A DNA stretch of 64,000 nucleotides from a virus (Duplodnaviria; Caudoviricetes). The notes below the pieces were generated by a model. That model searched no databases and was not told the DNA's origin. It worked only from the letters and a program-made list of their open reading frames with translations. The stretch is taken from IMG/VR virus record IMGVR_UViG_3300034062_006701; one strand, given 5' to 3'. A program made the position numbers and the translations under genes. Positions 1,862-62,334 of the stretch are shown here, piece after piece; within the stretch, counting starts at the first letter, position 1; each line of letters opens with the position of its first letter.

Positions 1862-2098
1862 CTAGGATGCGTTATCCGAACAATAACTATCAAAGTTAAG
1901 CTCTTCTTTAAGGTCATCTATAACACCGTCAAGCATCATAACTGCCTCACGTTCCTCGATTCCATCATACCAGAAATCATGTAGGTTGACAACATCAGGT
2001 AGATCAGAATAAGAGAGTCCGAACGTCTTATGACAACGGATGTTTAGAGCGCGTTTAAAGTCTCTAAAGCTTATAGTAGGTTCATTTAGTATGTTCAT
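1862..2098 (-). CDS. hypothetical protein
   Basis: 78-aa ORF, tightly packed. Confidence 0.7.
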   Translation of the reverse strand: MNILNEPTISFRDFKRALNIRCHKTFGLSYSDLPDVVNLHDFWYDGIEEREAVMMLDGVIDDLKEELNFDSYCSDNAS

Positions 2099-57263: not shown

Positions 57264-57386
57264 AGGAAAAATATTATGTTGCAAGCAGTTAGAAATATTT
57301 CTAAACCGCTAATTTGGTTAATAAAAGAGTGAACACCGTTCATATGTTCGAATATTTATATAATAAATACCTTCTATTTACAATAA

Positions 57387-59622: not shown

Positions 59623-59700
59623 TGGAGCGTAGAGCCAGATTTGAACTGGCGATTTTATCCTTTTGCAGAGGATTGCCTTTGACCACTCAGCCATCTACGC
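59623..59700 (-). tRNA. tRNA-Cys(GCA)
   Basis: ATCCT-CT-GCA-AA-AGGAT; U73; CCA. Confidence 0.92.
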
Positions 59701-59816: not shown

Positions 59817-60563
59817 TTATTTAAGAGACATTATATCTTCTTTTTTCCACACAATCAAGCTTTCCTTAAATTGATTCCATTTACATCGATCAAGCTCTGT
59901 TTCAAATCCTTTTACTTCCAAATAACCACCAAGTTCTTCTACCCAAAAATCAGGTGTATAATAAGCATCTCTACCGTTCAAGTGAACATATTTAAACCGT
60001 TGCGTATTTCTCTTCCAATTATAATTTTTACTATCTAACCATTTTGCAACTCTAAGCTCCCACGTGCCATCCACAGTTATATCACCAGCGATTGGACTCA
60101 AATACGTGTATTTTTTGCATCTACCGGCTTTATTGTCCCACCCTTCAGCGTGTCTACGTAATGCGCTTTGTCTAATAAGTTCTTTAGATTTTTCTGTATG
60201 TTTACGACCAGTATATACCGTCCTACCGGTAATATAGTTTTCACGCTTAGTATTTAAAAGTTTTTGAACGCGTGGATCTTCAGCTGTTAAACCCTTGTTC
60301 CACGCCGTGCTTCCTTTTTGTCTGCCTGCATTAGGTGACCGCTTTCCAGGTATTCTATTGGGATTTAATTTACATCTTTTAATATGTACGATAAGCGATC
60401 CCTTGTTAAGAATTTCCTTATTACAGAAATTACACTTTGTATCATTATATTGTGCATATAGCCTTTTACCGCACTGTTTACCATTTAAATGACGCTGTAT
60501 CGTTGATAAAGATATTTTTTTATTGCAACCAGGGCAATCTGTGTAGTTTCTTTTAATTTTCAC
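59817..60563 (-). CDS. free-standing PD-(D/E)xK endonuclease with zinc fingers and a NUMOD3-like motif
   Basis: CPGC, CNFC, GRKHTEKSKELIR, DGTWE, YTPDF...YLEVKG; GTG start 6 nt after TAAATA. Confidence 0.85.
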   Translation of the reverse strand: MKIKRNYTDCPGCNKKISLSTIQRHLNGKQCGKRLYAQYNDTKCNFCNKEILNKGSLIVHIKRCKLNPNRIPGKRSPNAGRQKGSTAWNKGLTAEDPRVQKLLNTKRENYITGRTVYTGRKHTEKSKELIRQSALRRHAEGWDNKAGRCKKYTYLSPIAGDITVDGTWELRVAKWLDSKNYNWKRNTQRFKYVHLNGRDAYYTPDFWVEELGGYLEVKGFETELDRCKWNQFKESLIVWKKEDIMSLK

Positions 60564-60609
60564 CAAAGATATTTAGTCTAGACGGTCACTTTTAACCACT
60601 CTTACAAAC

Positions 60610-60696
60610 AAGAGGTGGAGGGATTCGAACCCCCGAGACCGGTTATGGTCTGGCGATTTAGTAAATCGCTCTCGTCGACCGCTTGAGTACACCTCC
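60610..60696 (-). tRNA. tRNA-Ser(ACU)
   Basis: GCGAT-TT-ACT-AA-ATCGC; AGACC/GGTCT variable arm; no CCA. Confidence 0.88.
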
Positions 60697-60725
60697 GTGT
60701 TATATAAGAAAATTTTATTATAAGT

Positions 60726-60749
60726 GCTCCTGGTCGCTCAATCCAGAGC
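60726..60749 (-). other. hairpin in the hsp20 3' UTR, complementary to the 5' UTR
   Basis: minus strand GCUCUGG-AUUGAGCGA-CCAGGAGC. Confidence 0.7.
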
Positions 60750-60763
60750 TAAATTAAACTTTT

Positions 60764-61243
60764 TTAATTAACCTTCACGTCGATAGAAACGACCTCCGGT
60801 TTTACGACAGGGACCTTAACTCGAAGAAGGCCGTCTGTGTATGTTGATGAGATGTTCTTAATGTCCGTATTGTCATTGAGGGTGAAGGACAATTGTCCCT
60901 TCCTCCTACTAATGCCCTTACGGTGGAAGTGGACGGTCTCATCATGTTCCTCTTCCTCTTTATTAACATTAATGTGGAGTCGACCCTCCTTAACATTAAC
61001 GGTAATATTGTCTTTACCGACCCCTGCCAACGCTACTTCAATATAGTATGCGTATGGATTCCCATCAGGATCGGTTTCCGATACGATGTTATAAGGATAT
61101 GTAGCATTTGGAATATCAAATGCTTTATCAAAATCCTTGATAACGCTGCTTAGCCAACTTTCGTTAAACAGGCCTGGAAGATGGCTATAACCAGTACCTG
61201 CTGCCGGGATTACCCGACCTAGTGTGTATGTGTGTGTTGTCAT
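60764..61243 (-). CDS. small heat-shock protein Hsp20
   Basis: YPYNIV, IEVALAG, HRKGISRR, ISSTYTDGLLRV.VP. Confidence 0.92.
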   Translation of the reverse strand: MTTHTYTLGRVIPAAGTGYSHLPGLFNESWLSSVIKDFDKAFDIPNATYPYNIVSETDPDGNPYAYYIEVALAGVGKDNITVNVKEGRLHINVNKEEEEHDETVHFHRKGISRRKGQLSFTLNDNTDIKNISSTYTDGLLRVKVPVVKPEVVSIDVKVN

Positions 61244-61248
61244 ATATG

Positions 61249-61319
61249 TTCTCCTTTGTTAAGCGAGTTAATATGTTTACTTTAGTCCTGTTTGAGCGAC
61301 CAGAGCAAATATATTTATA
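61249..61319 (-). promoter_or_regulatory. hsp20 late promoter TATAAATA plus leader with SD AAAGGAGAA
   Basis: promoter 61312-19; the only clear canonical SD I noticed on a protein gene. Confidence 0.75.
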
Positions 61320-62037: not shown

Positions 62038-62112
62038 TGGCAGTCTCACGGAGACTCGAACTCCGATTCTGCGGATGAAAACCGCATGTCCTAGCCGTTA
62101 GACGATGAGACC
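62038..62112 (-). tRNA. tRNA-Glu(UUC)
   Basis: TGCGG-TT-TTC-AT-CCGCA; CCA. Confidence 0.92.
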
Positions 62113-62124
62113 GTTATTAGTTTG

Positions 62125-62201
62125 TGGTCGGCGAGACAGGAATTGAACCTGCAACCACGTGCTCCCAAAGCACGTGCTCTACCAAGTTGAGCTACTCGCC
62201 G
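62125..62201 (-). tRNA. tRNA-Pro(UGG)
   Basis: CGTGC-TT-TGG-GA-GCACG; CCA. Confidence 0.94.
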
Positions 62202-62216
62202 TTGATCACGATAAAT

Positions 62217-62291
62217 TGGTGCGCTATGACAGAGTCGAACTGTCCTCTCAGCCTTGGCAAGGCCACGTATTAGCCGATATACGAATAACGC
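62217..62291 (-). tRNA. tRNA-Gly(GCC)
   Basis: loop TT-GCC-AA; A73; CCA. Confidence 0.88.
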
Positions 62292-62334
62292 GCTTATTAT
62301 ACTTACATCATAGAATGGCTCAAGCAAATACTTT

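Follow-up and report, generated by a model that had tools for sequence, protein, structure and literature searches.

The present analysis concerns hsp20, a gene of the phage (Duplodnaviria; Caudoviricetes) known from the IMG/VR record IMGVR_UViG_3300034062_006701, and the two complementary untranslated regions (UTRs) by which its mRNA is framed; the whole stretch of DNA analysed, 64,000 nucleotides (nt) long, is referred to as the window, and coordinates are those of its minus strand unless otherwise indicated. The coding sequence, as given in the list of open reading frames (ORFs), occupies 60764..61243 (159 aa, stop codon counted) and specifies an Hsp20/alpha-crystallin protein (Pfam PF00011, E 5e-17). 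Proceeding in the direction of transcription, the gene is accompanied by the promoter-like octamer TATAAATA (61312..61319, read directly), a T4-type late-promoter motif; by the 5' arm of a long-range helix (61275..61307), which begins about 5 nt past the octamer; by a small ROSE-like hairpin masking both the Shine-Dalgarno sequence (SD) and the AUG (61241..61275), delimited by RNAalifold and by local folding; and, past the stop codon, by the 3' arm of the helix (60725..60759), which takes up the whole 3' UTR. Both arms were delimited by the minimum free energy (MFE) structure and the centroid of the full-length RNA, by RNAduplex and by covariation. The strings to which an initial annotation of the window had drawn attention are all found where it had placed them (TATAAATA at 61319-61312, GCUCUGGUCGCUCAA at 61306-61292, UUGAGCGACCAGGAGC at 60741-60726, UCGCUUAA at 61266-61259 and a second GCUCUGG at 60749-60743), and its 12-nt perfect inverted repeat (60730-60741 / 61292-61303) was recovered; the complementarity is thus real, its length having been understated, as it amounts to ~30 bp rather than to 12-16.

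Bases 2-34 of the RNA pair with 60759-60725 in four segments (16+4+5+5 = 30 bp), for which both RNAduplex and the folding of the RNA give approximately -43 kcal/mol. The outer 16 bp of the 5' arm correspond to 61307-61292 and include GCUCUGGUCGCUCAA, the inner segments (4+5+5 bp) extending as far as 61275; the opposite strand, which contains UUGAGCGACCAGGAGC at 60741-60726, carries a single bulged G (60729 or 60730) and starts 4 nt past the stop codon, a distance of 0-2 nt in most relatives. When the whole 591-nt mRNA is folded, the helix is present both in the MFE structure and in the centroid, and its RNAduplex energy (-42.7 kcal/mol) lies far from that of dinucleotide-shuffled 3' UTRs (-13.5 +/- 3.1; z -9.4), none of 100 shuffles reaching it. 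The complementarity is also exceptional within the genome: when upstream and downstream regions are compared gene by gene, hsp20 ranks first among the 118 genes of the window (-44.8 against a mean of -19.8, sd 6.3) and likewise first in a complete 218-kb relative with 304 ORFs, whose four inspected runner-ups turned out to be artefacts of flanking tRNAs (tRNA-tRNA pairing) or of spurious ORFs; the runner-up of the window (1862-2098) reveals, on reading, nothing obviously related. The sole other match of the exact 15-mer in the window is its own inverted partner, so that no dispersed repeat is involved, and no Rfam family covers the 5' or the 3' UTR of hsp20. The pairing between the two UTRs therefore exceeds chance, as in the class represented by hbs, icaR and RNAIII; it departs from the icaR type, in which the 3' UTR pairs with the SD, as the helix ends 31-32 nt short of the AUG; and it has the proportions of a processing stalk (a helix of ~20 bp or longer flanking an RNA within a multi-RNA transcript), being ~30 bp long with tRNAs on both sides, with which hsp20 would be co-transcribed.

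Protein-guided scans provided 16 IMG/VR loci (72-94% identity) and 69 metagenome loci (43-94%), mostly from lakes; after removal of duplicates, 24 core and 16 far loci were compared, 24 core and 15 far ones being scored against shuffles. In all 39 scored loci the cognate duplex outperforms the shuffled controls (z -4.4 to -10.3), its energy being matched in none of 100 shuffles, and in the far locus outside the shuffle scores (L124) pairing is visible in RNAduplex; the helix also appears, 15-34 bp long and each time with P>0.5, in the full-length MFE structure of all 16 diverse relatives that were folded. The two arms of each locus are apparently fitted to one another: the cognate partner is the better one in 242 of 276 swaps within the core clade (mean free-energy difference, ddG, +10.9 kcal/mol) and in 734 of 780 over all loci. 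In a plain MAFFT alignment 90% of the cells are paired, versus 25-52% when the partners are slid, and 29 cells bear a double change, a number reached by none of 500 shuffles; these counts are conservative, MAFFT having shifted the 5' arm of the window by one column on account of an extra base pair, which in the window is inserted on both strands (GGU[C]GCUCA / UGAGC[G]ACC). On the coding-sequence tree individual pairs changed state at least 6-7 times; pair 16:614 occurs as AU 9, UA 9, GU 2, GC 1 and CG 1 times, with at least 7 state changes, and at columns 19:611 (UA 18, CG 4) the 5' arm follows the changes of the 3' arm. Arm variants stay complementary, as seen in GCUCAGGUGCUCAA / UUGAGCACCUGGAGC, in AGCUCUGACGCUCAA / UUGAGCGUCAGAGGCU and in GCUCGGGUGCUCA / UGAGCACCCGGAGC, the last with a G.U intermediate in L006, and among the far loci complementarity is formed by unrelated sequence (e.g., UUUGACUUCUAGUGCC / GGCACUAGAAGUCAAA), persisting to ~44% protein identity. 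The compensatory changes by which the proposed end-to-end pairing was to be judged are hence strongly in its favour. A scan of IMG/VR with the exact 15-mer returned 63 contigs, all unrelated, and did not retrieve any hsp20 relative; the element is therefore conserved as a pairing and not as a sequence. Its geometry is equally constant, for in the core loci the promoter octamer, or an ATAATTA-type -10 in its place, ends 4-6 nt upstream of the first paired base, the 3' arm follows the stop codon as closely as described above, and the 31-32 nt between the end of the 5' arm and the AUG do not vary.

Complementarity of this kind might also be sought in the DNA, as an inverted repeat representing the ends of a mobile cassette (the alternative offered by the initial annotation), an invertible segment or paired protein-binding sites; the repeat does flank one gene, a free-standing endonuclease gene lies nearby, and the region is plastic, with tRNAs and endonuclease that come and go. 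Nevertheless, the endonuclease is found in 3 loci only, and the neighbourhood (orf274 - 225-aa ORF - hsp20 - tRNA/DUF5661) is largely conserved among relatives instead of varying from one context to another; in no locus is hsp20 inverted relative to the flanking same-strand tRNAs, no transposase, recombinase or target-site duplication was seen at hsp20, and the bases flanking the arms differ. On the grounds of synteny and constant orientation both the mobile cassette and the invertible segment were rejected. Moreover, the arms vary freely while remaining complementary, unlike protein-binding sites, and the limits of the repeat coincide with landmarks of the RNA, namely the predicted +1 and the stop codon, so that an origin of the repeat at the DNA level is extremely unlikely. 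The cassettes of the PeSL type found in T4 consist of direct repeats of an early promoter plus stem-loop around genes; the repeats at hsp20 are inverted, not direct, and this candidate was discarded as well.

Two further observations point to the RNA. Within the helix, internal G.U pairs outnumber A.C mismatches by 47 to 10 (p 7.5e-7, uncorrected for phylogeny, and in a test that leans on an energy model rewarding G.U), an excess which is the expected mark of selection acting on the sense-strand RNA; in addition, asymmetries between the arms, chiefly an extra G in the 3' arm, persist across lineages, which argues against the simple homogenisation of a DNA repeat. On the whole, the 5'/3' structure is in all probability real at the RNA level.

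Each arm can also fold on its own, and a different explanation would do without any long-range helix in vivo: hairpin I of the leader would recur in inverted form as the 3' UTR, the reverse complement of a hairpin being itself a hairpin, the two ends of the mRNA would carry independent hairpins with local roles (a stabiliser at the 5' end, a hairpin or terminator stem at the 3' end), and gene conversion, in a T4-like phage active in recombination, would preserve the complementarity. The 5' arm of the window alone gives a modest 5'-terminal hairpin (-9.3 kcal/mol; 75.7% of cells paired across loci, with a mean of -7.9 kcal/mol and z -2.2), and in the 3' UTR, as initially suggested, GCUCUGG (60749-60743) can be paired with CCAgGAGC (60733-60726) around the loop AUUGAGCGA (60726..60749, read directly), a hairpin with a 5-pair consensus, 88.7% of cells paired and two covarying pairs. 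Some double changes are thus seen in both local helices (76% and 89% of cells paired), the repeat seems at the DNA level to reach into the AT-rich flanks, and marine relatives use the 5' hairpin I without long-range pairing. Covariation in the local folds, on the other hand, arises because the inverted repeat is one of hairpin-like sequence; RNAalifold finds a consensus local fold for neither arm and none for the 3' UTR alone, which folds no better than shuffles (mean z -0.8), so that of the competing 3' hairpin proposed in the initial annotation only the covariation stands. The duplex exceeds both local folds in stability by ~20-25 kcal/mol; the lasting asymmetries (the extra 3' G, and an upstream 3' segment that is an inexact complement) would not survive frequent gene conversion; and G.U exceeds A.C on the sense strand, with complementarity kept over the protein divergence mentioned above. 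Two hairpins in place of the helix are, accordingly, unlikely. The local folds rather suggest that the RNA passes through two hairpins on its way to the long helix: the 5' arm would probably begin by forming a hairpin of its own at the 5' terminus, corresponding to hairpin I of two-hairpin ROSE-like leaders, and would give it up for the long-range helix, which is far more stable, when the 3' UTR has been transcribed.

Between the 5' arm and the gene, RNAalifold applied to the leaders alone finds no conserved arm fold, but it does find an invariant hairpin, CAUAU...CUCgCUU-AACA-AAGGAG...AUAUG, whose stem I (CAUAU/AUAUG) includes the AUG at 61243-61241 and whose stem II pairs the anti-SD CUCgCUU (61267-61261), with its bulged G, to the SD AAGGAG (61256-61251) across the loop AACA. 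Its energy at 37 C is -5.0 kcal/mol (z -4.5 to -5.8). In ROSE-like elements a U(U/C)GCU motif faces the SD with a bulged G, the hairpins of Pseudomonas ibpA having a dG of -4.1 to -7.6 (PMC3669281); the hsp20 hairpin contains such a signature (UCGCU), imperfectly paired with the SD, and lies where ROSE-like elements are located, in the 5' UTR of an alpha-crystallin-type gene. Of the distinct leaders tabulated, 47 contain the motif, those of cyanophages among them, and this number takes in P-SSM2, S-CAM9 and a marine single-cell virus at ~32% protein identity, with variants such as CUUgCUU and, in one relative, the compensated CUUgCC/GGGAG. The window and the 218-kb relative each have a single copy of the full hairpin motif, and ACUCGCUUA is no dispersed element (11 near-matches, 11.9 being expected). 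The Rfam ROSE models gave no match at E<=1 over 2.9 kb, nor at E<=10 over 151 nt, and no paper linking a cyanophage hsp20 to an RNA thermometer was found in the searchable library. The Prochlorococcus phage P-HM1 (L149; locus positions 1-258, 326-796) is peculiar in that its hsp20 directly follows regA, annotated as a translational repressor/endoribonuclease, and its leader is devoid of the CUCgCUU/AAGGAG hairpin that other cyanophages have.

As far as temperature is concerned, computed ensembles keep the pairing probability of the long helix at 0.86-0.89 from 5 to 50 C, and the computed dG of the SD hairpin rises from -12.6 (5 C) to -5.0 (37 C) and -1.9 kcal/mol (50 C); the end-to-end helix would therefore be a poor thermosensor, and by these calculations the small SD hairpin is likely to be the candidate. 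Of the thermosensor or stability switch originally envisaged for the helix, the stability role is retained as the most plausible, and the sensing of temperature by the helix itself is not.

In a more elaborate form of the same idea, the 3' element would have three alternative partners, the anti-SD strand UCGCUUAA being added to the 5' arm and the local 3' arm, and by toggling among them it would sense temperature or free the SD. It is true that an 8-bp pairing of UUGAGCGA with UCGCUUAA is possible in the window, and that pairing with the latter, as the anti-SD strand, would unmask the SD; but UCGCUUAA belongs to the invariant leader hairpin, and most core relatives read UUGAGCAC in place of UUGAGCGA, reducing the pairing to 6 bp. 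Where the 3' arm varies, it is the 5' arm and not the anti-SD that changes with it, far loci with different arms show no complementarity to the anti-SD, the MFE structure retains the SD hairpin, and the predictions show no response of the helix to temperature; the third branch of the three-way pairing proposed at first is not maintained by relatives, and such a switch is very unlikely. A further 6-bp pairing, between UUAACU of the leader (61266-61271) and GGUUAA, the last sense codons of hsp20 (60768-60773), speaks to some extent for a switch. It is 99-100% kept in 24 loci and inseparable from coding constraint (C-terminal Val); UUAACU overlaps the first two bases of the anti-SD, and the pairing might both lengthen the helix and act as a competitor of the SD hairpin.

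Some relatives are devoid of the helix, and on the Hsp20 tree two changes suffice to account for its presence or absence. The first group is a nested freshwater clade of 8 loci, which form one well-supported sub-clade: long-range pairing is absent (z about 0), the SD hairpin is also lost, and a strong 5'-terminal hairpin and an intrinsic terminator are present. The second comprises the marine/cyanophage leaders, with long-range pairing in 0/4, a 5' hairpin in 3/4 (none in P-HM1) and a clear intrinsic terminator read, among these four loci, in AG-345-O18 only. Where the helix is absent, therefore, classical end-protecting structures mostly stand in its place.

The genomic setting of hsp20 is that of a same-strand tRNA cluster. 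Downstream, 28 nt past the 3' arm, lies tRNA-Ser(ACU) (60610..60696; ARAGORN and Rfam tRNA), followed by tRNA-Cys (59623-59700), and upstream are tRNA-Gly, tRNA-Pro and tRNA-Glu (62038-62291; all ARAGORN), so that hsp20, with tRNAs on both sides, would presumably be co-transcribed with them; most core relatives likewise have a same-strand tRNA-Ser or tRNA-Cys close downstream of the gene. A few nt past the 3' arm there is a TATAAT (60717..60722), a possible -10 of the downstream tRNA which recurs in many relatives, not all, and a promoter consensus scan prefers the combination of TTGAGC of the 3' arm (-35) with an overlapping TAAAAT at 18-nt spacing. TTGAGC appears as a -35-like hexamer twice, before tRNA-Ser (60712-60741) and before tRNA-Gly (62296-62323), and the invariant TTGAGC/GCTCAA core of the helix may carry a double constraint, pairing and promoter. 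The anticodon ACU (A34) of the tRNA-Ser is unusual; being kept in many related phages (L001, L006, L007, L008, L012, L013, L086, L089, L100, L102 and L112), it is no one-off mutation. Between tRNA-Ser and tRNA-Cys, a 249-aa ORF (59817-60566) with a Cys/His-rich N-terminal segment is endonuclease-like (PHROG endonuclease, E 4e-14); shared with two related contigs only (three loci in all; L007 and L092, 87% identity), it resembles a free-standing homing-type insertion.

The start of transcription of hsp20 was placed near 61307 from the promoter motifs. In some relatives a sigma-70-like -35/-10 replaces TATAAATA upstream of the gene; in the 64-kb window the octamer is rare, with 3 copies (31935-31942 on the plus strand, 57353-57360 and 61312-61319 on the minus strand) against 8.2 expected, and its scarcity and placement are consistent with a T4-type late-promoter motif that is used where it stands and avoided elsewhere. 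In the copy at 31935, 6 nt separate its end from the ATG of a 1341-aa ORF. Two large related contigs with the same hsp20 encode a T4-type Gp23 capsid protein (E 1e-90), and the phage is therefore a member of an uncultured freshwater T4-like group; a DNA search of the 1.3-kb region against the phage collection returned only tRNA-Ser matches, in Bacillus phages, so that there is no close cultured relative. In three related loci (L002:2985-3010, L083 and L084) the start of hsp20 and the remainder of the gene are in different frames, and the shift falls in an AC-rich tract for residues 2-8 (ACAACACACAC...); slippage, assembly error or phase variation may account for it.

Taken together, the hsp20 transcript is read here, with moderate confidence, as a self-clamped closed-loop mRNA bearing an end-protecting or processing helix; a protective or processing function appears to be the best-supported reading of the helix, and a role in mRNA stability the most plausible one. 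The helix encloses a loop in which the weak ROSE-like hairpin comes directly beside it, followed by the ORF, and would behave as a temperature-insensitive end clamp or processing stalk. Base pairing of the 5' terminus is known to protect from RNase E, and RppH needs unpaired 5' nucleotides (reviewed in PMC3997798); by burying the 5' terminus, the helix would block pyrophosphate removal and the 5'-end-dependent entry of RNase E/J. At the other side, a cut of RNase P at tRNA-Ser would make the 3' end of the hsp20 RNA, and the helix would stop 3' exonucleases once the transcript is freed from the neighbouring tRNAs; a ribosome-free mRNA, silenced by the thermometer hairpin, would in this manner survive until the hairpin opens. 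Protection or definition of the ends is indicated by the substitutes in the helix-less clades, by the position of the helix at the +1 and by its embedding between tRNAs that are excised by RNase P and further nucleases.

Several points weigh against this reading. A strand-neutral DNA alignment that includes the AT-rich flanks reduces the G.U excess to 43 versus 32 A.C (p 0.25), and the inverted repeat seems to continue into the promoter TATA and these flanks; the local 5' and 3' hairpins show some covariation, so that the two-hairpin state may matter in vivo; a U-rich tract follows the 3' arm in 7/40 loci only, the +1 and the 3' end having been placed from motifs; ribosomes that halt at the stop codon would be expected to open the helix along its inner third; and a helix of 30 bp might just as well attract RNase III and so destabilise the mRNA.

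This last possibility is the main rival, although in itself rather unlikely: the helix would mainly be a substrate of RNase III, either as a processing stalk freeing hsp20 from the tRNA-cluster transcript or as a degradative site keeping Hsp20 low, in the manner of icaR of S. aureus. Double-stranded RNA (dsRNA) of ~30 bp is within the size range of RNase III substrates, and in the present case it is near-continuous, including a 16-bp segment with a single bulge, in a gene embedded among same-strand tRNAs; the conserved bulged G could direct single-strand cleavage. The 5'/3' duplex of icaR is cut by RNase III (PMC3868564, via the review PMC7821165); the hsp20 helix, unlike that of icaR, excludes the SD, and the stabilising elements carried instead by the helix-less clades (a 5' hairpin, and a terminator where one was read) suit protection better. 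Processing and protection are, in any case, compatible with one another.

A bolder version of the protective closed loop has also been considered. As the 3' arm starts 0-4 nt past the stop codon and the 5' arm runs into stem I, which holds the AUG, stop and start codons could meet at one three-way junction, making of hsp20 a true prokaryotic closed-loop mRNA with a translation-coupled hysteretic switch or local ribosome recycling. Stacking of the full helix on the SD hairpin could then stabilise the latter, hold it in the OFF state and keep the RNA protected, until a terminating ribosome melted the inner third of the helix, loosened the hairpin and favoured the next initiation; in loci with a U-tract past the 3' arm, the 5' leader might even be the upstream half of a long-range terminator. 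Such a degree of coupling is regarded as quite unlikely.

Among the systems described in the literature, the closest is hbs of B. subtilis, in which a 14-bp pairing of 5' and 3' UTRs protects the mRNA against RNase Y (Braun, Durand and Condon 2017, PMC5737220): in both cases the leader pairs with its own 3' UTR outside the SD, in hbs shielding it from ribonuclease, and a strong SD is important. The hsp20 helix, by contrast, is ~30 bp long and departs from the very 5' end and the stop codon; it covaries across a phage clade, whereas the hbs 3' UTR is reported to be unconserved in close relatives (review PMC7821165), and, as a structure predicted from sequence, it occurs in a phage, combined with a thermometer-type hairpin. 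In icaR of S. aureus (Ruiz de los Mozos et al. 2013, PMC3868564) the 3' UTR similarly pairs with its own 5' UTR to give dsRNA, but there a UCCCC anti-SD in the 3' UTR masks the ribosome-binding site, RNase III cuts and the gene is repressed, whereas the SD of the phage hsp20 has no part in the long helix, a local hairpin being what masks it. The two-hairpin ROSE-like leader of Pseudomonas ibpA (Krajewski et al. 2013, PMC3669281) shares with hsp20 the location in the 5' UTR of a small heat-shock protein gene, the UCGCU, the bulged G, a range of energies (-4.1 to -7.6) comprising the -5.0 kcal/mol computed here, and a stable, temperature-insensitive 5' structure that precedes the thermometer; it differs in that hsp20 has no Rfam ROSE match, that the helix with the 3' UTR takes the place of hairpin I and that the response of hsp20 is a computed one. 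In hsp17 of Synechocystis (PMC4477652) the AUG is also paired.

The processing stalks of bacterial rRNA are comparable in that flanks several hundred or more nt apart pair in a tRNA-bearing transcript, defining or protecting ends. In rRNA operons the stalks flanking 16S and 23S are long helices that define and protect both ends; the RNA enclosed by the hsp20 helix is instead a translated mRNA of ~500 nt, and its cleavage by RNase III is hypothetical. Translated RNAs whose two ends meet are also known from flaviviruses, whose cyclisation elements serve genome replication, and from eukaryotic closed-loop mRNAs, which rely on PABP-eIF4G-eIF4E bridges; in hsp20 the link is, differently, a direct RNA helix in the mRNA of a DNA phage. 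The use of protein bridges by eukaryotic closed-loop mRNAs is summarised in PMC7821165, together with the handful of prokaryotic cases of functional 5'/3'-UTR pairing (RNAIII, icaR, hbs), in which the pairings are short and the 3' UTRs poorly conserved between species.

Against this background, the hsp20 helix represents a rare case of a closed-loop mRNA in the prokaryotic world that is backed by evolution, with dozens of natural "compensatory mutants" distributed over an uncultured clade of T4-like lake phages and a built-in control in the sub-clade that replaces the helix with a 5' hairpin and a terminator; it also links this architecture to the apparently widespread ROSE-like leaders of phage hsp20 genes. 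Should the reading hold, the 33-nt leader arm and the 35-nt tail would make up a compact, portable mRNA-stabilising module for bacteria; and, if the helix does protect, the phage would store a silenced stress mRNA inside a heavily processed tRNA cluster.

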